Below, piece after piece: positions 35,426-62,583 of a stretch of DNA of 64,000 bases. Position numbers and translations under genes: made by a program. Source of the stretch: Isurus oxyrinchus (Eukaryota); NCBI GenBank assembly GCA_026770705.1, contig JANJGN010000323.1, positions 1-64,000 of the forward strand, read 5' to 3'. The stretch's first letter is position 1. Every line of letters begins with the position of its first letter. The notes under the pieces were generated by a model. That model searched no databases. It was given only the letters and a program-made list of their open reading frames with translations, and was not told where the DNA came from.

Positions 35426-35519
35426 CTGTAATAGAAACAGAAATGATCAGAGTGACAATCAGAGTGATCAGTGTTTAGTATTATTGATCCAAATCGAAAA
35501 TTCCACCCACAATAGATAC

Positions 35520-38189: not shown

Positions 38190-39230
38190 ACAGAGGTGCC
38201 AAGCTGCTGAGGTGACACACAGGACTACATACACACCAAACAGCGGAAACAACATGCTATAGACAGAGCAAAGCGATCCCACAACCAACGGGTCAGATCT
38301 AAGCTCTGCAGTCCTGCCACATCCAGTCATGAATGGTGATGGACAATAAAGATCTAACAGGAGGAGGATGTTCCACAAATATCCCCATCCTTAATGATGG
38401 GGGAGCTCAGCACATCAGTGCAAACGACAAGGCTGAAGCATTGGCAACCATGTTCAGCCAGAAGTGCTGAGTGGATGATCCATCTCGGCCTCTTCCAGAG
38501 GGTCCCAGCATCACAGATGTCAGCTTTCAGACAATTCGATTGACTCCACGTGACATCAGGAATCAGCTGATGATACTGGATACAGCAAAGGCTATTGGCC
38601 CTGGCAACAACCCAGCAACAGGAAATAATGTGGCTACAAGAGCGGGTAAGAGGCTGGGAACTCTGCAGTGAGTAATTCAACTCCTGACCCCCCAAAGCCT
38701 GTCCACCATCGGACAAGGCACAAGTCAGGAGTGTGATGGAATAATCTCCACTTGGCTGGATGAGTGCAGCTCCAACAACACTCAAGAAGCTCGACACCAT
38801 CCAGGAGCAGCTTGTTTGATCGACAGCCAATCCACCAGCATAAACATTCATACCCTCCACCACTGGCACACAATGGCAGCAGTGTGCACCATGTACAAGA
38901 TGCGCTGCAGCAACTCACCAAGGCTCCTTCGACAGCACCTTCCAAACCCTTAACCTCTTCCACCAAGACAGTTCCAAGTCAGTGAGGTGTGTGACTTGGA
39001 GGCGAACTTGAGGTGGTGGTCTGCCCTGGGACTTGGAACTATATCGGCCGTTCCTTCACCGTCGCTGGGTCAAAATCCTGGAACTCCCTCCCTAACAGCA
39101 CTGTGGGTGTACCTACACCACATGGACTGCAGTGGTTAAAGAAGGCAGCTCACCACCACCTTCTCAAGGGGCAGTTACAGATGGGCAATAATTTCTGGCC
39201 TTGTCAACAATACTCACATCCCATGAGCTA
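38190..39230 (+). mobile_element. CR1-clade LINE fragment with internal deletion
   Basis: Homologous to 20950-21240 and 22710-22890. Confidence 0.8.
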
Positions 39231-39264
39231 ATAATAAGAGAACGTTCAATTCTGTGTAACTCAC

Positions 39265-39546
39265 GTTCCACAGTGATGTTTATGAATCCCTCCACTGCTC
39301 CATGTTCATTCTCTGCCACACACTGATAGTCTCCAGTGTCCCTGGATGTAACGTGAGGAATCACCAACCACAGCTCATTGTTGGAACTTGTTCTGTTCAT
39401 TGGGACATTAAGATGTCGCCACGTCAGGTTAGAAGCTGGGAAGCTCTCGACAGAGCAGATTATCACTGCAGAATTCCCCTCAATTATATTGATCGATGAA
39501 GCGTTAATCATATCAAGAAAATTAATTGAGAGATTCTGTGGTGCAT
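39265..39546 (-). CDS. Gene B second C2/I-set Ig exon (DAPQNLSINF...IEGNSAVIICSVESFPASNLTW...RDTGDYQCVAENEHGAVEGFINITVE)
   Basis: 282 nt, phase 1/1, canonical C...W...DxGxYxC, acceptor tttgtttatag|, donor C|GTGAGT. Confidence 0.93.
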
Positions 39547-40290
39547 CTATAAACAAATAAACATCAATTAAGTTACACTGACTGTGAAGCACTTTGAAAG
39601 ACACTTAGAATGTGAAAGGTATGATCTCAATGTAGGTTCTTTTTCACAAAGCCCGTAATCCAGGCAGAGACTTCAGTTCAGTACTGAGGGAGTGCTGCAC
39701 TGTCAGAGGGTCAGTACTGAGGGAGTGTTGCACTGTCAGTGGGTCAGTCCTGAGGGAGTGCTGCACTGTCAGAGAGTCAGTACTGAGGGAGCACTGCACC
39801 GTCAGAGGTTCAGTGCTGAGGGAGTGCGGCACTGTCAGAGGGTCATTACTGAGGGAGTGCTGTACTGTTGGTGGGTAAGTACTGAGGGAGTGCTGCACTG
39901 TCAGAGAGTCAGTACTGAGGGAGTGCTGTACTGTCAGAGGTTCAGTACATAGGGACAGCTGCACTGTCTGATGGTCAGTCCAGAGGGGGTGCTGCACTGT
40001 TGGAGGGTCAGAACTCGGGGGGTGCTGCAGTGTGGGAGGGCCAGTACTGAGGGAGCACTGCACTGTTGAAGAGTCAGTACTGAGGGAGTGCTGCACTATC
40101 GAAGGTTCAGAACTGAGGGAGTGCTGCAGTGTTGGAGATTCAGTATTTAGGGACTGCTGCAGTGTCAGAGGCGAATTTGTATCAGTTAAAGACTATTGAT
40201 TTGTTGCTAAACACAATGCAGTTGTGGGATCTTGCAGTGTACTATGTAGAGCTTTCTAGCTAATGTAGATGGAAGGGTGTCCGTTCTTAC

Positions 40291-40587
40291 CTTGCACAGT
40301 TAGTACGAGGGTCCGCTCCGATGAAACAGATGGATATCTCACTCTGCAGCTGAGAGTGTGTCCGTGGTGTTTGAGTGATGGGATCAGGGTCAGAACAGAA
40401 GTATAGGTCAGAGTGACACCATGCTGAGTTACAGTGTTTGAGACTGATCCAGGTACGTCAGTGGGAGTGTCCCAGGTTAAGACAGGTGCTGCTGTTCCAT
40501 TGCACGTTGTGTTGAAGGTGCAGCTTACATCCACACGCTTTCCTGCAATAATTTCAGCAGGGAATATCGTGGGTTTATCTGTGAAAT
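40291..40587 (-). CDS. Gene B first C2-set Ig exon (DFTDKPTIFP...DVSCTFNTTCNGTAAPVLTW...LSCRVRYPSVSSERTLVLTVQ)
   Basis: 297 nt, phase 1/1, open frame, Siglec domain-2 signature including the BC-loop Cys. Confidence 0.93.
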
Positions 40588-41325
40588 CTAACAGACAGAG
40601 AATGGATCCTTTTAGACAAATATAACGTGAAGCATCAGTTCAAATAGAAACCACAGTCCCACAAGAGAAAGCACTTTTACAAGGATGATATCAGAACTGA
40701 GAGGTTACAATGATCAGGAGAGCATTTCCTGCTTTGACACTTTGGTGTTTCTGTCTCGCAGCTTAACACACGTTCACTCCGAGACACTTGAACTGATAAT
40801 AGTGGGTGAGGGTGGAGGAGCAGACCAGAGTTTGGAGTGCACTACCCCATCATTCACTCAGCAATCTGGGCCATTTATTACTTTGCAATTTGTGGGAGCT
40901 TGCTGTGCGCAAATTGGCTGCTGTGTTTCTCACATTACAACAGTAACTACAATTCAGGAATCAGCTCATTGGCTGTGAAGTGATTTGGTACGTTCTGAGG
41001 TGGTGAAAGGTGCTATAGAAATGTGAATCTTTCTTCTGTCGATATGTCAGGCTTCGAGACATTAGAGATTAGGATTAGAGAGATCGATGGGAGTGGATAA
41101 CCTGATAACATTGATGGACACAGTCAATATATTTAATCATTGATATTAAAGTGAGTATTAGAGGTTGCTTTAGGACTGAACTGGAAGCTATCACCAGGAT
41201 ATCGAGAATCAGACAGTGTGTTATAATAAGCTGTGTTTTGTGTTAATATGTAAACATCATAGTTTGTGTTATTTCCCATTGAGTGTTGAATGTGAAATGT
41301 TGAGTAATTATAACACAGCACTTAC

Positions 41326-41691
41326 CAGAAACATGAAGCTGGGTTACAGGGTAATAGTTATAGCTCGGAGCATTGTCAAATTCTATTCTGAAAAAATAAG
41401 GTCCTGCATCTTCCCGTCTGATGTTGTTTATAATCAGAGAACAGTCGCCATCTTTCAGGTCTCCAGACAGCCGGGTCCGATGGTGGAACTGTGGTAACTC
41501 GTGACTGTGATCCTTGGAGTGAAAGGCTATAGACAATGTTCTCCGTTCCTCATTATTAAACCAGACTCCAACTCGTGGTTGGTTTTCCAGACACGATGGA
41601 TAACTGTAATGACATGGAATCTGTACACAGGAATCTTCCTGCGCTGTCACCTCTCGTGGAGTGTCACCTTTCCACTCTTGTGACAGTCCAA
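41326..41691 (-). CDS. Gene B membrane-proximal Siglec V-set exon (Vb) with essential Arg (DAGPYFFRIE)
   Basis: 366 nt, phase 1/1; SCVQIPC, W, GDLKDGDCSL; no F-strand Cys; F-R-x-E motif typical of sialic-acid-binding V-sets. Confidence 0.93.
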
Positions 41692-43659
41692 CTGTGGAGA
41701 GAAATCTCAATATTTATCTCTGGATGTTTTGTGGATCCACTGAACCCGATATTTACAGATGAGACAGAATTTGGAGGATGGTTAATACTGAGGAGAATGG
41801 CAACAAATTATTTTGGCAGGATGAATAGAAAAACAGAATATTATTTAAATGGAGAGAGGCTGCAGAATGCAGTACAGAGGGATCTGGGTGTCCTGGTACA
41901 TGAATCACAGAAAGTCAGCATTCAGGAACACCACGGAATGAGGAAGGCAAGTGGAATGTTGGCCTTTATTGCAAAGGGATGGAGTATAAAAGGAGGGAAG
42001 TCTTGCAACAGCTGCACAGGGCGTTGGTGAGAATGTAACAGGATCATTGTGTACAGGCAGTTCAGAGAAGCTTCACTGGGCTGATTCCTGGGATTAAAGG
42101 GTTTGTCCTGTGAGGAAATGTTGAGCAGGTTGGGCCTGTATCCATTGGAGTTTAGAAGAATGAGGGGTGACCTTATTGAAACATATCCGATTCCGAGGGG
42201 GCTTGACAGGGTGGATGCTGGGAGGATGTTTCCCCCTCGTGGGGGAATCTAGAACCAGGGAGCACAGTTTCGGAATGAGGACTCTCCCATTTAAGACTGA
42301 GATGAGGAGGAATTTCCTCTCTCAGAGGGGCGCTAGCCTGTGGAATTCTCTTCCCCAGAGAGCAGTGGAGGCTGGGCCATTGAATAGACTCAAGGCTGAG
42401 TGAGGCAGGTTTTTGATCGACAAGGGAGTCAAGGGTTTGGGGGACAGGCAGGAAAATGGAGTTAAGGACACCACCAGATCAGTGAGAGCAGGCTCGAGGG
42501 GCCGAATGGCCTGCTCCTGTCCCTATTTCTTATGTTCCTACATTCTTACCTTCTTAAAATATTAAAGCTGCAGAATAAACATGCAAGTGAATGACCCGCT
42601 CGACCCACCTTCCATCTGGGGGTCCCATGGGGAGGACCCTTCCTGAGCCAGATCCACCAGCCAACATGGTCTGGATCCGAGCACTGGAGACACGGTGGGG
42701 AGTGACTAACAGGCTCCTTGTGACAGGCCCCATCTGTCCAATGGCTGGCTTTCAGCTGCCATGGCCAGAGTGGTCCTTGCTAAAACCGGCTCAGGACAGG
42801 CCAGGACCCCTGTGCAAACCCCCTCCAGCACGGCAGCCTCTGTACAAACCCCTCATGTGCTTGTGGATAGACACAAACAAGGCTGCACATTACCGAGGAG
42901 AATCCCCTCTACGGACTAAGGGGCTGACTCATCACCTTAAACTCAGCAAATGAGGAGGCTCTCGCTCGGTATCAGGGCTTGGCATTGGCTCAATAAAAAT
43001 AATCAAATTACATTTTGGTCAGAAATCTAAGGATGTTGTACATTCCCTCAAAAATAAGACTCAAGGCTGAAGGCACAACTGCCGATGTTGGAGTTTTGGG
43101 ATCGGGGGATGGTCAAGAGGCTTGGATTGGAGGAGCGCAGAGACCTCATATGGTTGGAGTGACTGGAGGAGGTTACAGAGATAGGAAGTGTTGTACGGTC
43201 TGAAAAAGTTAAGAGAGATTGGGAGAGTGTAGGGTCTGGAGGAGATTACAGAGACAGTGAGGGTTGTAGTGATTGGAGGAGTTACAGAGATAGGGAGGGT
43301 TGTAGCCGCTGGAAAAGTTAAGAGAGATTGGGAGAGTGTAGGGTCTGGAGGAGTTTGCAGAGGTCGGGAGGGTTGTAGTGACTGGGGCAGGTTACAGGGG
43401 CAGGGAAAGTTGTCGGGACTGGAGCAGGCTACAGAGATACGGAAGCTTTTAGGGGCAGGAGGAAGTTACAGAAATAGGGAGGTTTGTAGTGGCTGGAGGA
43501 GGTTGCAGAGATTGGTAGGTTTGTTTTGGCAGGATGAATTTACAGCTATAGGGAAGTGGTAGAGAATTGAAGAGGTTACAGAGAATGGGATGATTGTAGG
43601 TACTGGAGGAGGACAAGGAGATTACAGAGATAGTGAGGAAACAAAGATGAAAATTTGGA

Positions 43660-44610
43660 CATTGAGACTTTGCTTGACCAGGAGCCAGTCTCGGTCATCG
43701 AGCAGAGCGGGTGATAAGGGAACGGGACTTGGTGTGAGTAAGGACGTGGTCAGCAGTTTTGGATGGCCTCAAGTTTACGGAGTGTAGAGCGTGTGTTGGA
43801 ACAGTCGAGTCTGGAGGTAATGAAGGTGTGGATGAGGGTTTCAGCAGCAGATGAGCTGAGACAGGGTGATGTCGTGCGATGTTACGGAGGTGGAAATAGA
43901 CGGTGTTAGTGAGGGCGCAGATATGAGGCCGGAAGCTCATCTCAGGATCAAATGGGACAACAAAGCTGTGAACAGATTGGCTTCAATCTCAGAGAGCTGT
44001 CAGGGAGAGGAATGGAGTTGGTAGCGAGGGAACAGAGTTTGGAGCGGGGAATGAAGACAATGGCTTCAGTCTTTCCAATATTTAATTGGAGGGAATTTCT
44101 GCCCATCCAGTACTGGATGTCGGATAAGCAGCCTGAAAATAAGCAGCAGTGGAGGAGTCGAGAGAGGTGGTGGTGAGGTAGAGCTGGGCATCCTCAGTGG
44201 ACAGGTGAAAACTAACACTGTTCAGATGATGCTGCAAAGCCATTGCAAGTGATTCTCTGGCTACGATGAGATGGATAAGAATGGAGCCAGGGGAGAGCAG
44301 TCCCACCCAGCTGGACGACAGTGGAGAGGTGTTGGAGGAGGATGGTGTGGTCGAGCGTGTCAAAGGCTGCAGACAGATCGAGAAGGACGAGGAGGGAAAG
44401 TTGACCTTTGTCACAGTCACACAGGATGCCATTTGTGACCTTGATAAGAGCTGTTTCAGCACAGTGGCTGGGGTGGGAACCTGATTGGAGGGATTCAAAC
44501 ATGGAGATCCGGGAAAGATGGGAACGGATTCGGGAGATGGAAACACGTTCAAGGACTTTGGAGGGGAACGAGAGGCTGGAGATGGGACGGGGGTTTACAC
44601 GGACAGTGTG
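43660..44610 (-). mobile_element. L2-clade LINE RT fragment
   Basis: RPISSLSFPSKVLER...ETALIKVTNGIL..D.GQLSLLVLLDLSAAFDTLDHTILL. Confidence 0.85.
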
Positions 44611-44866
44611 AGGGGTGAAAGGTGTAGTGGGGAGGAGATACTTCACTCAGGGGGGAGGTGTCATCACCCCTCAGCTCGGTTTACATTACAGCTATGATGT
44701 GGATTCAATCACACACAATAAGCTCATGGATCTGGGAGCAGAAATAGACAAATCATTAAAAATAGTGACGCTGGTTAACACGGCCAAAAAACAAGCAAAT
44801 CAAACACTATTATTTCCCATTGAGTGTTGGATGTGAATTGGTGAGTAATTATAACACAGCACTTAC

Positions 44867-45244
44867 CAGAAACGTGAAGCTGGGTTACAGGGGAAACGTT
44901 ATGGCTCGGACGATTGCCAAATTTTATCGTGAAAAAATAAGGTCCTGCATCTTCCCGTCTGATGTTGTTTATAATCAGGGAACAGTCGCCATCTTTCAGG
45001 TCTCCAGACAGCCGGGTCCGATGGCGGAACCGTGGTAACTCGTGACTGTGTCCCTTGGAGTGAAAGGCTATAGACCATTTAGACCATTTGTTCCGTATGT
45101 ACCTTCTCATTTTCCAGATTCCGACATGTGGTTTCTTTACCAAATCTGATGGATAACTGTAATGACATGGAATCTGTACACACAAACCTTCCTGCGCTGT
45201 CACCTCTCGTGGAGTATCACCTTTCCACTCTTGTGACAATCCAA
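44867..45244 (-). CDS. Gene B distal Siglec V-set exon (Va) lacking the essential Arg (DAGPYFFTIK)
   Basis: 378 nt, phase 1/1, intact splice sites and frame; Arg->Thr; basic C-C' loop KMRRYIRNKWSKWS. Confidence 0.88.
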
Positions 45245-47349
45245 CTGGGGAGAGAAATATCAATATTTAACTCTGGATGTTTTGTTGATCCACTAGACTC
45301 GATATCCACCCCCTCCATCACTCGGGCACAGTGGCTGCAGTGTGGACCATCTACAGGACACACAATGAACTCCACAAGATATCACACCAGATGGAAGAGA
45401 ATCCTGGACACAAAAGCGGAAAAGTTCATTCTACATTGGTTCATGGTCCTCAGGGACCCTGTTTGTGCAGAAGCCTGTTCTCCAACAGAACTGAAGTTGG
45501 GGAAAATGCATTTGGAATTCCATTGTCCGGGGCATTGGGTTAACTTGCTGATTTTGTTTTAAATCTAACATCTATTTTTGGTCTGTTGCCTTAAAGGGAC
45601 TGTAACTGGGAGTCAGGTTAATTAGGAATTTTAGGAGTTATGATAGCAGTCTTGTAGTTACGTATGTGCTTGAAATCCTTTATTTTGATGACAAATATGT
45701 TAATTTATTGTTTTAAATCTCTAAAGGTATTGGTGGAGTTATTGCTTCTGGATTAAGTGCACACATTTCATAATAAATACAAATTGCAAAATCATTATGA
45801 TAGTGTGACCACCTTTCTCTCAGGGACTTGGTCTGCCTAGCACACATCACCTGCCAAGTGATAACACTGTTGTAATATGCCTTTCAGGGACAGCAGCATG
45901 ACATCACTCGAGAGGAAGTGTGTCATGTGATTTTTAGGAACTGGTGTTCGCTTAAGTAAGTTCTATGTGTATTTGTGTGCGTTAGGCAAAAGGTCTATCT
46001 TTAAGTTCAAGTTTAGTTTGTATTTCTGTATTTGGGTGTTGAGAAAAGGGGGAACTTGAGTTAAAAAGAAGCCAGCATTCCATTGAGGTTTTATGACTGT
46101 CGAAGGGAAGTCAAAACAAATACAAGGTGTAAGAAACTGTGCTGTTGCCTAGCAACAGTGATCCAGGGGGAAGGACCCACAGAGACCGAGAAAAACAGAA
46201 AAGTACTTTCAGTTCTGTTGAAAGGAGTTGCCAGGAGAAGCAGCAAAGGAGCGGGACAGATAGTCAGTCCCAAAGTAAAGAAGAAGCCAAAACTATAGAG
46301 TTTGACAGGAGAAAGGGCCCAAGAAGACGTTCTAGTCAAATCTGGAAAAGGCCCTGTTAAGTGAAGTTAAGAGTGAGGAGCAGAAGAAGGCTTCAAGCAT
46401 AAAGGGAGAAAGCAGCAGGACACAGACCTAAAGCAAAATAGGCTTGTGAGAAGCCAGAAGATCCTAGGAGACACCACAGGTTGGTGACTCATTACTACGG
46501 CCATGTGAAGCCATGGTGTTCCATTGACACGGCTGAGCATTGGAGAGACAGGGAGTGGAAGGAAGGCTGAATGCACGTGGCGATCCAGGGGACAGGAACA
46601 TGGGAAGGAGAGTTTGAAATAGTGAAAGTGGTCCCGTGTGGAAGGTGTCTGAGTGAAAGTGTCATGATGGAGAAGATTCCAAAGTGAGTTCTTGCAGAGT
46701 GGAGATTGGAAACTCTCATATGAAAGAAGCTTTTCAGTGAGACTGGTTGGCTCACAGTGTAACAAGCGTCTGGGGACAGATGAGACATAGAAGTTGTTTC
46801 AAGTGGGCTCTGCCACTTGCTTTCAGAATGTTGTGTCCCTGACCACAGGTCGTCTATTGGTTTACACGGACTGTGTACTTAGTGTGAACATGAGAATATA
46901 AGATAGTTATCGTAATTTGTGTTCTACTTATGTATCTGTAAAGGTATAGGTCTGGGTGAAGGAGTAATGTCATATAGTTAGTCTTTCCTAGTTTAATAAA
47001 TGTTTTATTCTTTTGTTAGACGTTCATCAGATGACTCCTGTGACTCTGTTCAGTAGCCGCACTCCACATTCCTAAATAAAAAATAAAAGTTAGGACCTAT
47101 CAAGCTGAGTTCCACCCTGGGATCTGACTTGCCCAGTAGTAACATCAGCTGGGATGGTAACACCATCCAGTCCAAGTTTCACTTTGGCCTGTGAGCAGAA
47201 CACAGCTCACACAGTTTGGCTGCAGGTGTCTCCCAGCTTTCTATCCTTGTATATCTGTTCTCATGTCCCTGTTCTAAATAACTGAACCCACAATGTATTT
47301 ACCCAATTCCATATCAGTGGCTGGTGCCTTTATATCATTATAAAAACAT

Positions 47350-50300
47350 AACATGGTGATCAGTGGTGGCCAAACATTCTGGCAGCAAGATTCAGTACAG
47401 GTATGACGTGGTGAACAGCCTGAGATCGAGCTACATGACATGAGACGACCCTCGACGCTTTGGTCAGACCACAACAGAGACACAGCATCAGAGAGGGTTG
47501 AAATCGCAGTGTACTGACTGCTCAGGAAACCTTTGAAGACACAGTGACGGGAAAGAGCTCAAGTAAAGAGCTGGGGAGCAGACGGATCCCTCGTGGTGAG
47601 ATTACAGCACACGGCCTGTAGGTCAGTGAGTGGGACAGTGTGTATCGCCAGGACCAGCAGCGGGTTAGCTCAGTCAGGGAAGGCGAGTGACCAGGGTGTG
47701 GGCTGGATCGATAGTGAGCGAGGGAGAGTCAAACACACAAAAACCATTATAAAAATCAGCCCAGAGAAGTTAGTGATTATAACGGGCGGCTTCGAGATTG
47801 CTGAACAGCAAATTGAATTAAAAACAAAGACTCCATTACTCCGTGGTGTGTTCCTGCCACAACCCGTCTTCGTGGGCGGAGCTTCGGAAAAGCGCACGAA
47901 AGGGGCTAAAGCGACACTCATCCCAGGTCCTGTAGGAGAAGGAAGGTCAAAGGAATATTGTCAGAATGTCCACGAAATTCCCCAGTTTGAACTGGGATGT
48001 AGCTGACCGACTATCTGAATTCAGAATGTTTAAACAGCGTACTGAGCTCTGGTTTCCTGATTCAGGTGTGACTGAACCAGACGAGCAAGCCATAAAAATT
48101 CACCTCGTGATTGGGAATGAAGGTCTACACAGGCTGAACACGTCAGGATTAACAGCAGAAGAGTGAAAGGATTCCCAATAGATATGGACGATATTAGAAG
48201 ACAGGTTCAGAATCAGGTGAAACTCCATATTCATCAACTAGAGTTTATGTCATTTCATCAGCCTACACGATCCATAGACCACTTCATCAGCCGATGTAGA
48301 GAAAAGGGTACGCACTGTGGTTTCAAACACAGAGACTGCAGACAGAGTTGTTGAGTTGGTGATCGCATCCACTCCCATGGATGCCTTCCAGAAAGCTCTG
48401 CTAGATAACACCAAAACCTATAGCATTGAAGAGCTACTCAAGGATGGACATAAATACGAAGGGATCCTCACAGGTCAACGAAGATTACAGGTCCTCTGTA
48501 CAACATCAATTGTTGACACACTCACTAGAACATCCAAACCTAGTGAGATGTGTGGAAGGTGTGGCCTTCTGCAGGCACCAAGGAAATGCCCAGCTTTCCA
48601 TGAATCCTGCAAGGCTTGTGGCAGAAAGGGCCATTGACAGCGGCAGGGCACTAGAGCAAAGGCTGATGCAGCTACAAAGAGCCGTGCGCTGATCCAAAAT
48701 AACCCTACACAGTGGGGAAACTTCAAGCAATAAGAATGACCATCCGCTATCCCATCAGGAACATATACATGTGGTGACTGGCAAACCAGGAAATGGCGAT
48801 GATGTGCACGATGAGACGAGGAGCGGTGATCAATATTCCACCTCTCACACATATCCTGACGTGGCTTGCCAATAAATTGTGGATTGTTGTCCTTAATGAT
48901 CTCTCTGAGCACATCAAATGAACTGAAAATGTCCCATAGGGGTGGGATTTTCTGGCCGCACCCACTGCCAGGATTGTCCGGACCAGCCGAAAGCCATTGG
49001 ATTTATATTTGTCCCAATCTCCCAAGGCAGGTCCTACCATGACCAGGCCAGAAAACCCCAGCCTGGAGTTTGTGCAGCACTTGTGCTCAACGTATTGTGC
49101 AATTGTTGAACAATTTCACACCTTTTACACCATCAATCTCATGGAGAACAGATGCTGTCATATCACCTGCACTATTGACCAAGATTCCAATTATCTGCCC
49201 TGAGAAAGTTGCTACCTCCCCTTTATTGGCCAAGATTGACACAGGGGCAAGTGCCAACATTCCCCTCCCCCAGCCCACCCCAGCAAATTTTCAAAGACAT
49301 GTATCCAAGGATATGGAAGTCCATGGGGAAACCTACTGCTGTGTACAACACTTCACCAACTCCATGTGCAGAATCCATAGTCCTGGAGTGCAAGTACAAT
49401 CAATCCTCCTGGGTGTCACAGATGTTCTACATTGTGGAGACTAAACGCTGAGCAATTACAATCTACCGGCATGCGGTGACCTCACACTAGTGACTATCCA
49501 TGGAATCTGTCAGACCTCACATGGGTCAACCTCAGAAAATACCCCATCACCTCAGTTCATGCCATAACATTGAAATATGCAGAAAGTTTCAACAGTATTG
49601 GCAGTTTCAAGGTAGCTGCAACATTACACCTGCAGGAGAATGCAAGTCTGTCAATTGATCCAGTACATTTAGCACAACAGAAATGACAGCAGCTACAAGA
49701 GGGAACAGTGTAAAATTCTACAGGAACTGTGGAAATATCATTGAAGGGTGGCCTGATTCAATTTGACCTGATCGGCATAAGCGAGGCATCTCCCAGGGAA
49801 CTATTTTTAAAGGCAGGCAGGGCATCATACCGGAACATTTGTGATCCTATATTCTTCAACAACTTCATCCCTCACACATGGACACAGATCAGACAAGGAG
49901 ACTCACAAGAGATACAGTCACTGGCCGGGTATGAACAATTAGCTTGAAGTCATTTGTAGGGAAGTACAAGGCTTGTCAAGAGGCTTGTCAAAGAACCACT
50001 GATTCCACAGGAAATTCCTGCCCATTCTTAGTCCAAAATCTGAATCCTTTCATGTCCATGTCACTGACTTCATCGTCATTGTTGACAGCTTTACCAGATA
50101 TCCCGTTATTCAAAAATAGCACAATACACCAAGCACAACTTCTGCACACACTCGAAGCACTATTTTCAGTTTCTTTGGTGAACCTAGGGACATGATTACA
50201 GATAATCTGGAATATCAATCACACTACTTCTTCTCCTCATTACCCCAGATCTAACAGCCTAGCTGAATGAATGATTCACACAGTGAAATCCCTAATTCTC

Positions 50301-51230
50301 AAATGTAGACAGGCCAAGCAAGATCCACACATTGCAATGTTACATCTGAGATCAACACCTACAACTGCAACTTTGTTAAATTCATTCATGGGATGTGGGA
50401 GTCACTGGCCAGGCCAGGATTTATTACCCATCCCTAATGTAAGAGTCAACCACATTGACGTGGAGTCTGGAGTCACATGTCTGCCAGATAATTTTGTTCC
50501 CTAAAGGGCACTGGTGAGCCAGGTGGGATTTCTAACAATGGTTTTGTGGTCATCACTAGACTTTGAATTTCATATTTTTATTAAATTCAAATTCCATCAT
50601 CTATTATGGCCGGATTTGAACCCATATTCTCAGGACATTACCCTGGGTCTCTGAATTACTCGTCCAGCAACAATACCACTACACCATCACCTCACCTTAT
50701 TCCATCACTGACAGAGATCATGTTTGGTGTGCCAGTAGTAACCAATTTCGCTACTCTTACCCATTCTACTCTCTCAGAAACCAGAGGGCAGCTTTTAAAA
50801 CTACAAGAGAAGATAAGGAATGTTCATGATAAAAATGGAGGTGCAGAGTTGCCAAGTTTACAGTTGGGACAAGTTCACATCCAGGATCCCACAGAAGGTT
50901 CATGACCACCAGCCGAGGTGACAAGGAATTGTTCAGAACCAAGGGCCTATGGAGTCAAACACACAAGGGCACAGCGGTGAGGTGGAACCGAGGATAACTC
51001 AGATCCATTCCCGCTCCTATTCCATCGAGGAGCAGATCCCACGTGAAATCAGGATCACCATCCAAGGGTGACAATCCCACAGATCACGGTGAGCAGTTAA
51101 AGACACCTCCAGACAAGGTAACCAGCACAAGATCTGGGTGTACCAGAAGGTTAAATCCACACTTGAGAGACTCAAATATTCAACAGTTCCGTACACTTAT
51201 GTAATTGTCAATAAATATGAACATGATATG
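47350..51230 (+). mobile_element. Decayed, internally deleted Gypsy-type retrotransposon in gene B intron 1
   Basis: gag-like (FRMFKQRTELWF...AIKIHLVIGNEGL; CGRCG...CPAFHESCKACGRKGH), protease LAKIDTGASAN, integrase-like TTSSPHYPRSNSLAE..IHTVKSLILK. Many stops; boundaries approximate. Confidence 0.8.
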
Positions 51231-52223
51231 AGAAACCGCTTGTTCCCTGCCCTTCTGAAAGATCCATTCCTGCAGCAGGAGCCTGAAGAGTTACTGATAA
51301 GAGATTTAATTTATCGGATTGTAGAATGATCCGGAACTGAAGGAAGCCATTTGGCCCATCGAGCCTGTGCTGGGCCTTTGAAAGATCTGTCCAATAAGTC
51401 CCACTCTAACCTCTGCTCTCTCCTCCACAGCCCTGCAAAATGTCCCCTTCAAGTATTTATCCAGTTCCCCTTCTGAAAGTTCCTGTTGAATCTGCTTCCA
51501 CCGCCCTTTCAGGCAGTGAGTCAATGGTCTCTCTCTGAGCTGCAAAGTGATAAGTTTCAATGAAATATAAACTCTGCAGCAGATCAGAAACAATCATGAT
51601 AACTCAGAATATTTGACAGTTTTACATACAGACAGCTTTGCCTCCCTTCTCTCTATCAGTTATCTTGCTATCTTATCGAATTTTCTAGCATGGTGAGAAG
51701 GGACAGGAAGTGTGACGCTGAACTGCCTGTCTAATCTAAGAGCTTCTGTGTTGTCTTCATGGGAAATTCTGATGAAAATCAGCAAGAGAGAAACATTTCA
51801 GGGCATTGATATCAGAGTGCTTGCATCAGGATAGACTTTATCCCCCAGTTTTTATCCCTGCTTCTCTATTCAGCCGATCGCTCCCCTGTCACTCGCTGAC
51901 CTGCACTGGCTCCCAGTCCAGCAATAACTCAATTTTCAAAATCTCTTCATTGATTCCTTATCCCTCCATCCTCCCTCTCCACTCCCTATCACTGTCACCT
52001 CCTCCAGCCCTGAAACCCTTTGAGGTCTCTGCTGTCCTGCAGTTCTGCTGTCAGACAGGGAGTCAGTGTATATCAGTGAGCACAGGGGTGATGGGTGAAT
52101 GGGACTTGGTGTGAGTTTGTACACTGGCTCACTGCTGAATCGGTTCCCTATCAGAGCTCAGTAAGAATGTTCTTTTACAAAGACTATTCACCATAAGTCT
52201 GTCCAAGCTGACGATGTTATTAC

Positions 52224-52263
52224 CTTGGAGAAGTGACAGGAGGAAGTAAGATTTCCCGACCAT
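52224..52263 (-). CDS. Leader exon copy B1, MVGKSYFLLSLLQ (nearest leader to gene B V exons)
   Basis: acaATG, phase-1 donor. 85-nt upstream exon at 52714-52798, ETS site at 52841. Confidence 0.82.
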
Positions 52264-54330
52264 TGTCCACTCCCAGATATTCCTTTAGCTTCTGACTCTT
52301 AAACTGTGAAAGAGAAAGGAGTTAATGAATCCTCACCTCCTGTCCGACAGCTCTCGAGAGATCAGAACTGCTTTTAGACAATGTCTTCAAAGACTAATTT
52401 GGTTCTCTGTGGGATGATAGGTGCTCTGCAGAGAGTTAAAAAGCTTTAAAAAAATAAATCAATGAAGGACTTGCATTTCTATAGCACCTTTCACCACCTC
52501 AGGATGTCCCAAAGCTCATGTCCCTGCTCTTCCCTCATCCTTTGAGCTAGAAAGATGTTCTGTACAACAGACCTGAGCCTCACACCCTGAACTCAATAAT
52601 CAATAGAAATCTTTCGAAGGCATCAATCATTGGAATCTGTCTTTATAAAGTCACATCATCAACAAAGGACGGTGTTGGTGGTGGAAGTGAATTCCAATCG
52701 TTCCGTTACTTACCCAGTACCTGTCCGACTGCTCGCCTGGGGAGGAACTGCCCACACGCTCTGCTTGAGCTGAATGACCTCTTCCTGTGCTGCTCCCTCT
52801 GTGTGTTTAATGAGAAAGGGTGGATGTGTCACTTTGAGACAAAATGAGGAAGTTGGATCAAAGTGACAGAGCAGCTCATGTTTTGAGATGTTGGTGAACT
52901 GTTAACCCTTTGTGTCCTGACCCTGTGGTGATATTTTTGCTCACAGGTGGACAGTCATTGACCAGGAATTTCTCCTGTGGGTCAGTGGGTTTCACAGCCA
53001 AATTCAGGGGGTCAGAACGTTGTGGGGTTCAAGACCCCATTCAGGGGACGTCTGCCCCACAGTGTAGACTGAAACTCCCCAGTGTCGGTACTGAGCAATT
53101 GCTGCACTGTCGGATGGTCATTACTGAGCGCGTGTTGCACTATTGTAAGGTCAGTACTGAGGGAGATCTCCACTGTTTGAGGGTCAGTACTGAGGGAGTG
53201 CTGCACTGTCAGAGGGACATTAATCAGGGAGTGCTGCAATGTTGGAGGATCAGTACTGAGGGAGTGCTGCACTGTTGGAGGGTCAGTATTAAGGTGCTGA
53301 TTTACAAGACAGGACAATGGATTAGGAGCCGTCACAACTCCCCCCATTATCACTGTCATGAATCACTAATTAGCCTAACATTCCTGTCTGCTCTTCAACA
53401 CGGCTGATTGGCTAATCTGATTCAATCTGATTGGTGCACTTTGTATGTTCATTGTCTAAGGAATCTCTTTGGATCCTCATTGTCTAAGGAATCTCTTTGA
53501 ATCCTCATTGTTTAAGGAATCTCTTTGGATCCTCATTGTCTAAGGGATTATTTCTGATCCAAACCCCATATTGTTGTATTGTTGATTCCGATGCAGCATT
53601 GTAGACTGACTTGTCCCCAAACTCAGCACTGACCCTACTCCAGCAGACACTGTGAAACACACTAACAAAGTGCCTCTAGCCTGAGCTCTGCATGTGTCGA
53701 GAGAAAGACAAATATGCAAACTGAATATTGACACCTTTACACACGGACAGCTTTACCTTCCTTCTCTCTTTCAGTTATCTTGCTCCCTTATTGAAGTATC
53801 TAGCAAGGTGAGAATGGACAGGAAGTGTGACACTGAACAGCCTGTCTATTCTAGGAGCTGCTGTGTTGTCTTCATGGGAAATTCTGACTAAAATCAGCAA
53901 AAGACACAAATTTCATTCCTTTGCTATCGGAGTCCAAGCATCAGGATAGACTTCATCCCCCAGTATTTATCACTGTTTCTCAACTCAACACCTCACACCC
54001 TCCGCCACTCGCTGACCTGCACTGGCTCCCAGTCCAGCAGAGCCTCGAGTTTAAGACTCTCATCCTCAATTTCCATTCCCTCCATTCCTCTTCTCCAATC
54101 ACTTTCTCCTCCAACCATGCAAACCTCAAAGTCCTCTGCTCTCCTCCAATTCTGCTGTCAGACAGGGAGTCAGTGTATATCAGTGAGCACAGGGGTGATG
54201 GGTGAATGGGACTTGGTGTGAGATTGTACACTGGCTCACTGCTGAATCTGTTCCCAATCACAGCTCAATAAGAATTATGTTTTACAAAGATGATTAGCCA
54301 TAAATCTGTCCGAGCTGACAATGATATTAC

Positions 54331-54370
54331 CTTGGAGAAGTGACAGGAGGAAGTAAGATTTCCTGATCAT
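54331..54370 (-). CDS. Leader exon copy B2, MIRKSYFLLSLLQ
   Basis: Duplicate of A2. 85-nt upstream exon at 54814-54898, ETS site at 54941. Confidence 0.7.
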
Positions 54371-55049
54371 TGTCCACTCCCAGGTATTTCATTGGTTCTC
54401 AAGCTGTGAAAGAGAAAGGAGTTAACGAGACCTCACCTCTTGTCCGACACCTCTCGAGAGATCAGAACTGCTTTTAGACAATGTCTTCACAGACTAATTT
54501 CATTCTCTGTGGGATGATAGTTGCTCTGCAGTGAGTTACAAGGCTTTAAGAAAGTAAAACAATGAAGGACTTGCATTTCTATATCGCCTTTCACCTGCTC
54601 AGGACACCCCAAAGCTCATGTCCCTGCTCTTCCCTCATCCCTTGAGCTAGAAAGATGTTCTGTACAACAGACTTGAGCCTCACACCCAGATCTCAATAAT
54701 CAGTAGAAATCTTTCAAAGGCATCAATCATTGGAATCTGTCTTTATAAAGTCACAACATCAACAAAGGACGGTGTTGGTGGTGGAAGTGAATTCCAATCG
54801 TTCCGTTACTTACCCAGGACCTGTCCGACTGCTCGCCTGGGGAGGAACTGCCCACACGCTCTGCTTGGGCTGAATGACCTCTTCCTGTGCTGCTCCCTCT
54901 GTGTGTTTAATTAGAAAGGGTTGATGTGTCACTGTGAGACAAAATGAGGAAGTGGTTAGTACCAAGTTAGAAAGCATCTCTTTGCCTCGCACAGTTAGAA
55001 AACTGTTAACCCTTTGCGTGCCAAGAATGTGGCTGAAGGGCCATCGACT

Positions 55050-55865
55050 GTTCACATGCTTTAAGCTCGAGGTGGTTGAACGGGCCTCCTCCTGTTCCTG
55101 TGTAACAGGCTTGAGGGGCTGAATGGACCTCCTCCTGTTCCTGTGTAACAGCCTCGAGGGACTGAATGAACCTCCTCCTCCGCTTCTTGTGTAAGAGGCT
55201 TGAGGGGCTGTTTGGGCCCCCTCATGTTCTTATATAAGATGCTCGTGTGGCTGAATGAGACTTCTCCTGTTCCTATGTAACTGACTTGAGGGGCTTAATG
55301 GACCTCCTCCTGTTCCTGTTCATCAAGCTCATGGGGCTGAAATGACCTCATTCCGTTCTGGTGTTAGAGGCTTGAAGGTCTGAATGGGCCTCCTCCTGTT
55401 GCTGTGTAACAGGCTCGAGGGGCTGAATGGGCCTCCTCCTGTTCCTGTGTAACAGGCTCGAGGGGCTGAGTGGGCCTCCTCCTGTTGCTGTGTAACAGGC
55501 TCGAGGGGCTGAATGGCCTCCTATTGTTCCTGTGTAACAGGCTCGAGGGGCTGAATGGGCCTCCTCCTGTTGCTGTGTAACAGGCTCGAGGGGCTGAATG
55601 GGCCTCCTCCTGTTGCTGTGTAACAGGCTCGAGGTGCTGAATGGGCTTCCTCCTGTTCCTGTGTAACAGGCTCGAGGGGCTGAATGGGCCTCCTCCTGTT
55701 GCTGTGTAACAGGCTCGAGGGGCTGAATGGGCCTCCTCCTGTTGCTGTGTAACAGGCTCGAGGTGCTGAATGGGCTTCCTCCTGTTCCTGTTTAACAGGC
55801 TTGAGGGGCTGAATGGCCTCCTCCTTTTCCTGTATAACAGTCTCATGGGGCTGAATGGCCTCCTC
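55050..55865. repeat. ~43-bp minisatellite GGCTCGAGGGGCTGAATGGGCCTCCTCCTGTTCCTGTGTAACA (also 33370-33970; inverted at 10490-10680)
   Basis: Tandem units resembling the CR1 3'-tail motif seen at 13340 and 42490. Confidence 0.92.
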
Positions 55866-56808
55866 TCATTAAAAATAAATACTGCAAATGTTGTAAATCT
55901 TCAATAAAAATGAAAAATGCTGCCTTAACTCAGCAGGTCTGGCAGCAGCTGTGGAGAGAGAAACAGAGTTTTTGCTTATAGACTCTGAAGAAGGGTCATA
56001 CGGACTCGAAATGTTAATTCTGTTTATCTCTCCTCAGATGCTGCCAGACCTACTCAGTTTCTCCAGCATTTTCTGTTTTTATTTCAGGTGCTCTCTTGTT
56101 CCTGTGTAGCAGGTTCGAGGGGGCTGAATGGCCTCCTCCTGTTCCTATTCAATGGGCAGTCAAAGTATGCATCTGATTTTGGACCTCAAACCCAATTCTG
56201 TCCTCAGGACATTGACAGAAGGAGAGACCAGTTACAGATCAATGCAGGAGGATTATTTATTTTCCCAATCTTTTATCCAAGAATGTCATCAAACATAGAG
56301 CAGAACCAGGATCAAGGATGTTGGTCTCTGTAATCTGTAACACATCGCACAGTCCACCCATCCACTCAGCCTTCAGGATGGATGCTCATTGTACTCTCAA
56401 AGTGTGAAAGACTAAAATGGTGGTTTATTGCAGCTATATCTCATTCTGTTATCAAAGATGTCTCATCCATCCATGACATATTGAAGAAGATAAACCTGCA
56501 ACCAATTTTTCACATCATAATTTCCTATGTTCATTGGCAACATCAATGTAAACATGTCACGCTGAAATGATGTCCTCCCACCAGTGGTGGCACTGTAGCA
56601 CATCTGTTATCCTCTGAGCTGCAGAGAATTTCTCAAATCTCCAAACAAATTGTTTCCCTGTTTCCCAGATTGCTGTTAGTTTTGCTGTTTAACGATGAAG
56701 TGTAAAATCCAAATATATATCTGAAAATACATTTGATTACAAAATGCTGAGTAAATTTTGCCAATCTCCTCTGCTCCAATTATCCACCGATCCTGCATTT
56801 CCTGAAGT

Positions 56809-56894
56809 CTACACTGGCTGATGAATATTCTGTAAACCTTCCTGAGCTGTCACCTCTCGTGGAGTGTCACCTTTCCACTCTTGTGAGGGTTCAG
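56809..56894 (-). CDS. Gene C fused terminal exon (A)EPSQEWKGDTPREVTAQEGLQNIHQPV*: start of a Vb exon joined to a 3'UTR copy
   Basis: Acceptor ctctccccag|. The first ~19 codons match V exons, then at ~56837 the sequence switches to the 3'UTR seen at 34940 and below. TAG at 56809-56811; AATAAA (minus) at 56424-56429. Confidence 0.7.
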
Positions 56895-58551
56895 CTGGGG
56901 AGAGAAATCTCAATATTTATCTCTGGATGGTTTGTGGATCCACTGAACCCGATATTTACAGATGAGGCTGAATTGGGGGGATGGTCAATACTGAGGAGGA
57001 CTGCAACAAATTACAGGATGATATACATTCTGATGAAGAATCATACGGACTCGAAACGTTAACTCTGTCTTCCTCTCCACAGATACTGTCAGACCTGCTG
57101 AGATTTTTCCTGCAATTTTTGTTTTAGTTACAGATTTCCAACAGCTGCAGAATTTTGCTTTTACATTACAGAAATATATTAATAAACTTGCAGAATGGGC
57201 AGGTCATTGACAAATGAGTTTCTATGTTAATAAATGTGAGGCATTACATTTTGTTCAGGAAAATGAGGAGCTTGTATCTTACCTCGAAAATAAGAATCTA
57301 ATTGGGGTAGAGGAACAACGTGATCTGGGCCGGAAATACAGGAATCAGTAAATGTGGGGACACAGGTTAACAAGGGAATTAAACATACAAACTAAACACT
57401 CGAGATTATTTCTCCAGGGATTGAATTGAAAAGTAGAGAAGTGATGTGAAACTTGTCCTGAACCTGGTCTGTCTGCACCTGGAGTCACGTGTGCAGTTCT
57501 GGTCCCCATATTGTAAAAAGGATGTGGAGACACTGGAGAGGGTGGTAAAAAGCTTCACAAGGATGATCTCAGCAATGTGAGGCTTTACCTATCAGGAGAG
57601 GATGTACAGGCTGGGACTCTGTTCTCTTGAACAGAGAAGGTTGAGGGGTGACCTCATTTGACCTTTGAACTAATTAAAGGTTTTGATCGAGTAGACATGG
57701 AGAGAGTGTTTCCACTCCTCACAATGAACAAAACCAGAGGCTGACAATATAACATCCTCACTAATAAATCCAATGGGGAATTCAGGAGAAACTTCTTTAC
57801 CCAGAGAGTGGGGAGAATGTGTACTTCAAGAATCACTTCATTGGCTGTGAATCAGTTTAGGATCGTCCTGAGGTGGTGAAAGGTGCTATGGAAATGTGAG
57901 ACTTGCTTTTGTATTTTGAAAGCAGGTTTCCAAGATTGAGATGGGAACTGAGAGGTTACAACAATCAGCAGCAACTTTCCTATTTTCAAACTTGGTGGGG
58001 AATGTGTCACTGAGCTGAATACACTTTCACTCCCAGACCCTTGAATTGCCAACACCGGGGTGTGGGTGATGGAGCAGCCCACAGCTCATGGAACCCTGGC
58101 TCATCATTCTCTCAGAGATCTGGGTCACTGATCCCATTGCTCTCTGTGGGATCTTCCTGTGCACAAACTCACTGCCACGTTAGACAGTGACTATACTTCA
58201 AGAATTTCTTCATTGTCTGTGAAGTGATTTGGTACGTGGTGAAAGGTGCTATAGAAATGCAAGTCTTTACTTTGTCGATTTGCCAGACTTTTAAATAGGG
58301 ATTAGAGAGTTCTATGGGAGTGGATAACCTGATAACATTGATGGACACAGTCAACACATTTAACCATTGATATTAAAGTGAGTATTAGACGTTGCTTTAG
58401 GACTGAATTGGAAGCTATCACCAGGTTATTGAGATCAGACAGTGTGTTATAATAAGCTGTGATTTGTGTTAATATGTAAAGGTCACAGTTTGTGTTATTT
58501 CCCACTGAGTGTTGAATGTGAATTGTTGAGTAATTGTAACACAGCACTTAC

Positions 58552-58920
58552 CAGAAACGTGAAGCTGGGTTACAGGGTAATAGTTATAGCGCGGACCATT
58601 GTCAAATTCTATTCTGAAAAAATAAGGTCCTGCATCTTCCCGTCTGATGTTTTTTATAATCAGGGAACAGTCGTCATCTTTCAGGTCTCCAGACAGCCGG
58701 GTCCGATGGTGGAACCGTGGTAACTCGTGACTGTGATCCTTGGAGTGAAAGGCAATGGGAGCCCAGGGAATCTGTTTCTCATTATTAAACCAGACTCCAC
58801 CTCGTGGTTGGCTTTCCAAATGTGCTGGATAACTGTAATGACATGGAATCTGTACACACGAACCTTCCTGCGCTGTCACCTCTCGTGGAGTGTCACCTTT
58901 CCACTCTTGTGACAGTCCAA
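58552..58920 (-). CDS. Gene C Siglec V-set exon with essential Arg (DAGPYFFRIE)
   Basis: 369 nt, phase 1/1, intact frame and splice sites, same Siglec hallmarks as 41326-41691. Confidence 0.92.
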
Positions 58921-61900
58921 CTGGGGAGAGAAATATCAATATTTAACTCTGGATGTTTTTTCGATCCATAATTCTTGATATCCACTCCCTCCATCACTGG
59001 GGCACAGTGGCTGCAGTTTGGACCATCTACAGGACACACAAGTAACTCCCCAAGGTTTCACAATGGATCGATGAGAGTCCTGGACACAGGAGTGGACAAG
59101 TTCATTCTACCTTGGCTCATGGTCCTCAGGACTCTATTTAGTTTTTTCAAATTATTCATTCATGGGATTTATTACCCATCCCATGTCCATCAGAGGCATT
59201 TAATAGTCAACCACATTGCGGTGGGATTGGAGTGATATGTAGGCCACACTGGGTAAGGGTGGCAGATTTCCTTCCCTGAAGGTGATCAGTGAACCAGGCT
59301 TTTTAATCCCATTCATCTGCCATGATGGAATTCACACCCAGGGCCCCAGAGCATCACCCTGGGCCTCTGGAATACTAGCCCAGTGACAATACCTCTCTGC
59401 TACCGCTTCCCCTTAGTGAAGCCAGTCTTCCACCCAACACAGTGTCTACAAGACGCACTATTTGAGATCCATTCAATGCTGATTTACAAGACAGGACAAT
59501 GGATTAGGAGCCCTCAGAACTCCCCCCATTATCACCGTCATGAATCACTAATTAGCCTAACATTCCTGTCTGCTCTTCAACACAGCTGATTGAATCAGAT
59601 TAGCCAATCTGATTGGTGTTCATTCCCTCTTCAACTTTTAAGGAATCACCAATCACTCGGCCTCTAGTTATTCCCCTGCCCACAAGAGGGAACATTCTCT
59701 GTCTACCCAGTCAACCAAAACATTTAAAATCCATGGAATTTTGTAGCTTTATTCTCTTCGCAAGTGTCTTAACTCTCAAACCTCGTCTACTTGAAACAAA
59801 ATATTATTGGTTCCTCACTATAAATTTTCAAAAAAATTGGGTGTCTGTTCCTCCATCAGCAACTCTTCAGAATCCTGCTGAAGTCACGGATATTTCAGAA
59901 GGACAGGGAACAAGAGGTTCCTGGTATCAGCGTTTTGTGTGGGGCCCAGTTCAGTTTGAACAAATAAACAACACCATCTTTGAAAGTCATGAACCCACCA
60001 CAGCGGCACCTCCGACACATGCAGAGCTCAGGCGAGAGGCGCTTTGTTAGTGTGTTTCACAGTGTCTGCTGGAGTAGGGTCAGTGCTGAGAGGGTCTGCT
60101 CAAGGATCATAACAACCTGCACTTGCACCTTCCAAGTAATAAGATTTTGTAAATGTATTCATTCATGGGATGTGGGCGTCGCTGCCAAGGCCAGCATTTG
60201 CTGCCCATCTCTAATGTCCCGTGACATAATCTCTGTAGCAGAGTAGAGACAATCATGATCACTCAGGATATTTGACATCTATCCACATGAACAGCTTTGC
60301 CTTCCTTCTCTCTTTCAGTTATCTTACTCCCTTATTGAAGTTTCTAGCATGGTGAGAACTGGATGGTTTGCTCGGACATTTCAGAGGAACCACGTTGCTA
60401 TGAGTCTGGAGTCACATGTAGGCCAGACCAGATATAGACGGCAGATTTCCTTCCCTAAAGGCCATTAGTGAACCAGATGGGTGTGTATGACAATCGATGA
60501 TAGTTTCATGGTCTCCATTACTGAGACTAACTCCCATTAGTGTAAACAGAGTGAACAGTTTTCCATTGATCCCACCTTTCCCGTTCTCTCCGGTATTTTA
60601 CACACTATTGCTCGATAATTTGATTCTGCCAAGGACCCCTTGGAAAATTATGGACACCAATTAGACAACCGATGGAATAAGGAATCTCGTTGGATCCTCA
60701 TTGTCTGAGGAATCTCTATGCATTCTCATTGTCTAAGGAATCTCTTTGGATCCTCATTGTCAAAGGGATTATTTCTGATCCAAACCCCATATTGTTGTAT
60801 TGTTGATTCCGATGCAGCATTGTAGACTGACTTGTCCCCAAGCTCAGCACTGACCCTACTCCAGCTGACACTGTGAAACACACTAACAAAGTGCCTCTAG
60901 CCTGAGCTCTGCATGAGTCGGAGGTGCCGCTGTGGTGGGTTCATGACTTTCAAAGATGGTGTTGTCATTTTTTTTGTTCCAACTGAACTGGGCCCCACAT
61001 GAAGTGTTGATACCAAAAACCTTGTGTTCCCTGTCCTTCTGAAACATCTGTGATTCAGCAGGATTCTGAAGATTTGCTGATAAGGGTCTTAAATTGTCTG
61101 ATTGTTGATTGATACAACACAGGAGGAGCTCATGTGACCCATCGTGCATGTGCTGATTCTTTCCCAATTCCTCTCCAACACCTTTCGCACATTCCTGCAA
61201 ATTTCCCTTCAAGTATTTATCCAGTTCCCCTTCTGAAAGTTCCTGTTGAATCTGCTTCCACCGCTCTTTCAGGCAGTGAGGCAATGGTCTCTCTCTGAGC
61301 TGCAAAGTGCCCAGATTCCGTGAAATTTAAACTATGCAGCAGATCAGAGACACTCATGATAACTAAGAATATTTGACACCTTTACACACGGACAGCTTTG
61401 CCTCCCTTCTCTCTTTCAGTTATCTTGCTCCCTTATTGAAGTATCTAGCATGGTGAGAATGGACAGGAAGTGTGACACTGAACAGCCTGTCTATTCTAGG
61501 AGCTGCTGTGTTGTCTTCATGGGCAATTTTGAATAAAGGCAGCAAAGGATACAAATTTCAGGCCATTGCTATCGGAGACCTAACATTAGGATAGACTTCA
61601 TCCCCCAGTTTTTATCCCTGCTTCTCGACTCAACCCATCACTCCCCATCGCTCACTGACCAACGTCCGATAGCACCTGGATTTTAAGATTCTGCTCTCGC
61701 TGCTACAACCCTGCCTATCCCTGTAAACTCCTCCAGCCCCTACAACTCTCCAAGACCTCTGGTCTCCTCCAATTCTGCTGTCAGACAGGGAGTCAGTGTA
61801 TATCAGTGAGCACAGGGGTGATGGGTGAATGGGACTTGGTGTGAGTTTGTACACTGGCTCACTGCTGAATCAGTTCCCTATCAGAGCTCAATAAGAATGA

Positions 61901-61953
61901 TCTTTTACAAAGACTATTAACCATAAATCTGTCTGAGCTGACAATGGTATTAC

Positions 61954-61993
61954 CTTGGAGAAGTGACAGGAGGAAGTAAGATTTCCCGATCAT
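61954..61993 (-). CDS. Leader exon copy C, MIGKSYFLLSLLQ
   Basis: acaATG, phase-1 donor G|GTAATA. 85-nt upstream exon at 62444-62528. Confidence 0.82.
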
Positions 61994-62570
61994 TGTCCAC
62001 TCCCAGATATTTCCTCAGCTTCTAACTCTGAAGTTCTGAAAGAGAAAGGAGTTAATGAGACCTCACCTCTTGTCCGAATGCTCTTGAGAGATCAGAACTG
62101 CTTTTAGACAATATCTTCACAGACAAATTTGATTCTCTGTGGGATGATAGGTGCTCTGCAGAGAGTTACAAGGCTTTAAGAAAGAAAAACACTGAAGGAC
62201 TTGCATTTCTATAGCACCTTTCACCACCTCAGGACACCCCAAAGCTCATGTCCCTGCTCTTCTCTCATCCCTTGAGCTAGAAAGATGTTCTGTACAACAG
62301 ACTTGAGCCTCACACCCAGATCTCAATAATCAGTAGAAATCTTTCAAAGGCATCAATCATTGGAATCTGTCTTTATAAAGTCACAACATCAACAAAGGAG
62401 GGTGTTGGTGGTGGAAGTGAATTCCAATCATTCCGTTACTTACCCAGGACCTGTCCGACTGCTCGCCTGGGGATGAACTGCCCACACGCTCTGCTTGGGC
62501 TGAATGACCTCTTCCTGTGCTGATCCATCTGTGTATTTAATTAGAAAGGATTGATGTGTCTCTGTGAGAC

Positions 62571-62583
62571 AAAATGAGGAAGT
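62571..62583. promoter_or_regulatory. PU.1/ETS-type site AAAATGAGGAAGT (also at 31144, 33262, 52841, 54941)
   Basis: Purine-rich GAGGAAGT core at the same position, ~43 nt upstream of each 85-nt exon that precedes a leader. Altered to AAATCAGGAATT in the intronic copy at ~37138. Confidence 0.55.

Follow-up and report, generated by a model that had tools for sequence, protein, structure and literature searches.

Can a single deletion turn a membrane receptor gene into a gene for a secreted lectin, or does it leave one more broken copy behind? This question is raised by gene C, one of four Siglec-like genes in a 64,000-nucleotide stretch of Isurus oxyrinchus DNA (contig JANJGN010000323.1, positions 1 to 64,000; termed the window below). 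Gene C belongs to a shark cluster of Siglec-like genes in which birth and death of copies are fast. An earlier note on this DNA had proposed that gene C encodes a working soluble lectin or decoy rather than being a dead pseudogene. The reading preferred here, to which we give roughly even chances, is that gene C is a real but truncated paralog that is young, drifts neutrally and makes little or no useful product.

Structure of gene C and its deletion junction

The exons of gene C were compared with those of gene B, whose distal and proximal V exons are termed V45 and V41 (Table 1). From 56837 downward the gene C sequence aligns with the 3' untranslated region (3'UTR) and 3' flank of gene B (34943 downward) over 972 columns, with 35 substitutions (3.6%) and no insertions or deletions, and the sequence upstream of 56837 matches V exons. 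This confirms the fusion of a V exon start (stub 56894-56838) to a gene-B-type 3'UTR, with 3-4 nt shared, that had been described earlier at about 56834-56837. The 29 nt following the break (56837-56809) are identical to gene B UTR positions 34943-34915. A gene-B-like copy has evidently lost about 6.7 kb (6692 bp relative to gene B), from codon 20 of the second V exon to a point in the UTR 366 nt past the gene B stop. The lost segment held the two C2-type exons, the transmembrane (TM) exon, three cytoplasmic exons and the greater part of the second V exon; the earlier account rightly listed the C2, TM and tail exons and had left out the second V exon. The loss may have occurred in a duplicated copy, through repair or template switching at the 3-4 nt microhomology. 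The letters common to both sides of the break are GTT when compared with V1, GTTT with V45 and none with V41; because a random join would share at least 3 nt with a chance of 0.05 and at least 4 nt with a chance of 0.016, this microhomology is only suggestive.

Leader, V1 and stub, joined by a script from their coordinates, give 495 nt in frame, or 164 residues and a stop. Cys35, Cys40, Cys98 and Arg116 are all contained in this predicted product, in which the V domain is followed by a 28-residue tail and no TM segment is present. The composition of the product, the run of the frame to QNIHQPV in the last exon and the retention of AATAAA (56429, 56261; 380 or 548 nt beyond the main stop) all agree with the earlier note, as do the leader, V and stub themselves; that note had overlooked an upstream exon at 62561-62444, which contains an ATG. 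Below the junction, no donor-like site scored above 6.0 on a rough consensus matrix, on which seven correctly placed, used donors scored 7.4-12.3.

Table 1. Features of gene C and of the neighbouring genes in the window
Feature	Position	Strand	Remarks
Leader exon, gene C	61954..62035	-	main ATG 61993; 13 codons + 1 nt; donor after 61954 (GT)
V1 exon, gene C	58552..58920	-	369 nt; Cys35 58858-58856; Cys40-Cys98; Arg116 58615-58613; Tyr125
Second-V-exon stub (AEPSQ type)	56838..56894	-	intact acceptor at 56894
Deletion junction	56834..56837	-	3-4 nt microhomology
Former 3'UTR now read as QNIHQPV + TAG	56809..56833	-	TAG = 56811-56809
3'UTR, gene C	56256..56808	-	AATAAA at 56429-56424 and 56261-56256
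12-mer, presumably PU.1/Ets-like	62572..62583	-	directly before exon U; shares bases with a pyrimidine tract; may be a promoter element
5'UTR exon U	62444..62561	-	copy of gene B first cytoplasmic coding exon (cyto1, 37095-37011); internal acceptor 62528
Upstream open reading frame (uORF) private to gene C	62022..62528	-	ATG 62528; 32 codons across U/leader splice; TAG 62024-62022
Gene B, sole intact paralog	34530..52831	-	leader-V45-V41-C2-Ig-TM-cyto1-cyto2-tail; 588 residues; comparison template; Pfam matches on C2-type exons
Duplicate of gene B 3' block 30465-34943	52162..56837	-	V-less cassette (U 54931, ATG 54370) and gene B cassette (U 52831, ATG 52263)
Gene A	26358-31134	-	leader; V nearly all deleted (~29835); C2 with extra Cys; second C2-type exon reduced to half; Arg in TM exon; short tail
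Gene D	7962-9130	+	other Siglec-like subtype; leader and V exon with stop in F strand (~9127)

V1 matches the Pfam profiles V-set (1.5e-11) and Ig_CD22 (2.8e-9), both above cut-off, and its best sequence matches in the PDB are Siglec-5 (1.9e-16), Siglec-7, Siglec-8, CD33 and MAG. The YFFR of V1 aligns with Siglec-5 and Siglec-7, with Arg116 and Tyr125 at corresponding places. Moreover, the top Foldseek matches of an AlphaFold model of V1 (pLDDT 84) were the V domains of sialoadhesin, CD33 and MAG, with a TM score of about 0.8. These data identify V1 as an N-terminal V-set domain with the Siglec fold. As judged by alignment, Arg116 is the essential F-strand arginine, and Cys40 and Cys98 lie, at the sequence level, at the places of the B-E disulfide. 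The interdomain disulfide is present on paper in gene B, whereas Cys35 has no partner in the 164-residue product; the C2-set domains, type I TM segment and signalling tail present in gene B have been deleted.

One homologue search gave 3 proteins and a second gave 102, the named ones all from sharks, rays and skates, and 106 proteins were fetched. The closest relatives of V1 are lamniform, namely V domains of Carcharodon (93% identity) and Cetorhinus (90%). In a V-domain tree of 38 rows (25 chosen proteins and the window), which has many open forks, V1 is placed near cysteine-bearing V domains. The dN/dS values of V1 against V41 (0.067/0.115) and V45 (0.151/0.105) reflect mostly history before the deletion and were not used.

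Reading through the V1 donor (58472-58551, minus strand) gives a 163-residue frame with two extra cysteines, and the intron start after V41 and V45 is open just as it is after V1. Intron retention could, as far as these frames go, yield soluble V forms from intact genes as well.

The unpaired cysteine and the tandem V domains

The earlier note had described the interdomain cysteine of gene C as unpaired. Cys35 is indeed without a partner, and the question is then which partner was lost. Gene B has ten extracellular cysteines, and these would fit only as 40-101, 166-223, 284-342 and 391-436 together with 35-173 and 161-290. Cys173 lies seven residues after the B-strand cysteine of V41. Cys290 lies six residues after that of C2 and is aligned with the second cysteine of the CD33 C2 domain; likewise, V and C2 of the relative P0015 align with CD33, both C2 cysteines included. 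The 106 fetched proteins contain 128 V motifs, with isoforms kept in, and an extra cysteine in the BC loop was found in 35 of the 43 V domains that follow another V, in one of 73 N-terminal domains (a 5'-partial model) and in 2 of 12 others. Its V-after-V carriers include V41 (window 41326-41691) and V domains of proteins P0005-P0039.

The 5' flank of the gene C stub differs by 8.4% from that of V41, and its AEPSQ start is also found in V-after-V domains of Cetorhinus, Scyliorhinus and Rhincodon. Decay after the deletion was considered as the origin of AEPSQ and rejected, as this is an old second-V variant. Because the AEPSQ start and the 5' flank mark the stub as a second V, the partner lost by Cys35 was most likely the BC-loop cysteine of the deleted second V domain, and not a cysteine of C2. 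This corrects the earlier description as regards the partner.

Shark Siglec-like proteins with tandem V domains are likely, from the pattern of their cysteines, to carry a V-V interdomain disulfide formed through the extra BC-loop cysteine. No description of such a bond was found among the titles and opening lines of abstracts listed in searches of the open-access literature. C42 of Siglec-8 is presumably the interdomain cysteine of that protein. A V-only construct of Siglec-8 carried a C42S change (passage in PMC9875244). A bond between V and C2 is the rule in Siglecs; without it, Siglec-6 loses one of its binding modes, according to passages of PMC10122656. The V-V pattern may matter more than gene C itself; shark Siglec-like proteins with tandem V domains seem to place the acceptor cysteine in the BC loop of downstream V domains.

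Transcription, drift and function

Exon U had been missed in the earlier note. Its region is 95.5% identical over 314 nt to 36846-37158, and the U exons of the window (62444-62561, 54814-54931, 52714-52831, 33135-33252 and 31017-31134) are all near-identical copies of cyto1 (37011-37095). Such an exon precedes every minus-strand leader, and splicing from U to leader is seen in Cetorhinus models as well as in contigs of runs X2 and X17. The identical 12-mer, which we take to be of PU.1/Ets type, precedes U in all five U-leader cassettes.

The uORF of gene C stops short of the main ATG by 28 nt and of the leader/V1 junction by 68 nt; only one of the six copies of exon U/cyto1 has the ATG at 62528, the other five reading AGG. 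By the exon junction complex (EJC) rule a main stop in the last exon escapes nonsense-mediated decay (NMD), and translated uORFs can, by their stops, trigger it (passages of PMC9661723). The main stop of gene C lies in its last exon, and to this extent the earlier claim of NMD escape holds; the 32-codon uORF adds a caveat, as it could, judged from its position, suppress translation or trigger NMD of the gene C mRNA. Leaky scanning may bypass it, and the uORF is a caveat rather than a refutation.

Of 24 runs listed in a run search, the best shared 0.45 of the sampled words, so that reads of the source animal were probably not among them. Expression was viewed in contigs from four of these runs, X2 and X1 (organism A) and X17 and X8 (organism B), both organisms being a few percent from the window. 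In contigs of X2 and X17, leader and V are joined at 61954/58920, and U is likewise joined to leader, both with GT-AG borders. A loose end in X2 at 56895 equals a V exon 3' end, that is, a V spliced to the second-V acceptor, and a 1203-nt X2 contig lies over the V1-stub intron of gene C with 28 differences. The Siglec-like family is transcribed in this exon order. Among the records listed, none crosses 56837 and none has the 58552/56894 joint, which weighs neither way; the loose ends listed at 56837 are intact gene-B-type UTR. At 93% likeness the contigs may derive from any paralog, and they are uninformative on gene C's own junction.

Neutral drift is favoured by the wreckage around gene C. 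In genes A, C and D, three of the window's four, the break falls within a V exon, and two further cassettes lead from U and leader to no V. The 29 nt after the break are unaltered UTR, and random UTR positions have a stop within nine codons in 31% of cases. A simulated neutral copy at the divergence seen between duplicated 3' blocks near the junction keeps the open reading frame, splice sites, arginine and cysteine pair with P 0.10-0.78 across six assumed rate settings, so that an intact frame is expected neutrally at this divergence. None of the 106 fetched homologues, the only proteins checked for it, has the QNIHQPV tail; a stub this short cannot serve as the query of a protein search, and clusters can hide short members. 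As to marks of a pseudogene, gene C has one large deletion, its private upstream ATG and the change G96D; leader and V1 are free of stops, frameshifts and splice-site losses. Under neutral drift the remnant would still splice leader, V1 and stub and then be polyadenylated; any protein would be a V-only Siglec domain with a signal peptide and a free Cys35, and output may be further damped by the uORF and by quality control of the free thiol in the endoplasmic reticulum.

Several observations weigh against drift. V1 is without decay: at highly conserved columns it deviates once (G96D), where 29 close V domains have a median of 3 deviations. The splice sites are all intact, as are the promoter-like motif and the two poly(A) signals. 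Upstream ATG variants also occur in other leaders, one of them seen in run X17, so the upstream ATG is no proof of decay. In addition, isolated Siglec V domains have been solved with bound sialosides, to go by PDB entry titles, so a V-only product could bind. Young-and-neutral and young-and-useful are not separable by these data, and it is the surrounding wreckage that favours the former. If gene C is not both expressed and selected, it counts as a further loss in the birth-and-death evolution of the cluster.

The foremost rival, which we regard as unlikely though deserving serious attention, is that gene C is expressed and its product secreted as a V-only lectin for sialic acid, either a cysteinylated monomer or a Cys35-linked dimer with gain in avidity, acting as a decoy or competitor of gene-B-type receptors. 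The signal peptide, the Siglec fold, the alignment of Arg116 and Tyr125 with Siglec-5 and Siglec-7, the last-exon stop with its downstream AATAAA and the undecayed V1 are consistent with such a product, as is the family's splicing from U through leader to V and from V to second V in X2 and X17; soluble Siglec-14 and LILRA3 offer precedents (passages of PMC8615218 and PMC3533184). However, the tail is unaltered UTR, intactness is already expected under neutrality, the uORF is private to gene C, and sibling genes are broken in similar fashion (two of them in V exons), so the earlier claim of a working lectin is not sustained; moreover, Siglec-6 loses one binding mode with its interdomain disulfide. 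A prediction of the V1 homodimer scored 0.03, which counts neither for nor against a dimer. More doubtful still is the wider proposal that one deletion made a dedicated secreted single-V lectin gene, dimerised through Cys35, which completes an inhibitory, activating and soluble set in a cluster of stacked, disulfide-linked V domains. Expression and selection of gene C would make it a cartilaginous-fish gene, seen soon after its origin, that encodes a soluble Siglec of a single V domain, and would show simple deletion to be a source of soluble decoys in this cluster.

It is also conceivable, with a still smaller probability, that the promoter, leader and V1 of gene C provide gene B with an alternative 5' end, with V1 spliced onto V45 or V41 to give a membrane receptor with an arginine-positive distal V. 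Joining to V41 would give Cys35 a partner in Cys173, the frame stays open in both hybrids, for 609 and 483 codons as far as the TM exon, and V45 lacks the arginine and seven other conserved residues. In X2 a leader is spliced into a U/cyto1-type exon, and the Cetorhinus model P0042, a gene model only, runs from the tail of one gene into the next U-leader-V. Such splicing must, however, reach across 13-17 kb and skip four cassette exons, two AATAAA signals and, at 56894, a good acceptor. The weakest rival is an assembly error at the junction, for which a multi-copy tandem cluster and two N gaps in the window (1314-1462 and 2263-2444) might speak: a mis-join at 56837 is very improbable on sequence grounds. 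Near the break, V start and UTR share no exact match longer than 6-7 nt, which would not suffice for a join by repeat collapse. Each side has its differences from gene B, with 15 mismatches over the 176 nt upstream and a first UTR mismatch 50 nt downstream, and the closest N is 54 kb away.

Neighbouring genes and known systems

The three cytoplasmic exons of gene B carry tyrosine motifs; a frameshifted tail was at one point considered for this gene and was rejected once the cyto1 exon had been found. Its distal V45 (44867-45244, minus strand) has lost the essential arginine and seven other conserved residues, and the proximal V41 has the arginine. In gene A, leader, C2 and TM form an open frame of about 158 residues, on paper a V-less activating-type receptor. 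Downstream of gene D, no C2, TM or other exon was found between 9.2 and 26.3 kb; a weak, decayed V-exon remnant lies at 15696-15812 on the plus strand (tblastn E 0.01-0.05). The duplicated 3' blocks diverge by 1.5-3.6% near the junction and by 7.5% in one more distant block. Long tandem repeat arrays also occur in the window (for example 5100-7700, 35524-36261 and 55065-55865), and the N gaps sit among simple repeats.

No paper on the shark Siglec-like cluster was found among the titles and opening lines of abstracts listed in searches of the open-access literature, and term look-ups in PMC10877568, PMC13358205 and PMC8455134 returned nothing on shark or V-only Siglecs. The nearest known relatives are the CD33-related Siglecs and MAG (Siglec-5, Siglec-7, CD33, sialoadhesin), with which V1 shares the V-set fold, the F-strand arginine, the B-E cysteine pair and the spare interdomain cysteine. 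Unlike them, gene C has no C2 domain, TM segment or tail, and many of the shark relatives have 2-7 tandem V domains. NCBI models of shark Siglec-like proteins (Carcharodon, Cetorhinus, Scyliorhinus, Mustelus, Rhincodon) have a leader identical to that of gene C; three are short leader-and-V models of 139-178 residues, which may be incomplete predictions, and, as already said, the gene C tail is found in none of the 106. The SIGLEC17 pseudogene and the KIR2DS4 deletion allele are deletion-damaged receptor copies, possibly still transcribed, as gene C may be; in contrast to both, the gene C truncation keeps one entire V domain in frame.

Soluble Siglec-14 is a TM-less Siglec that might dampen membrane receptors (passages of PMC8615218); it is an mRNA splice product of an intact gene, whereas gene C results from a genomic deletion and retains V only. 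LILRA3 is a gene-encoded soluble member of a paired-receptor cluster (passages of PMC3533184), and the window resembles that arrangement in having gene A with an arginine-bearing TM exon and gene B with tyrosine motifs; LILRA3 has shown ligands, whereas the gene C product is predicted only. Overall, immune receptor clusters are already known to contain truncated and soluble copies, and gene C is a member of the Siglec family by descent whose predicted product is without C2, TM segment and interdomain disulfide.

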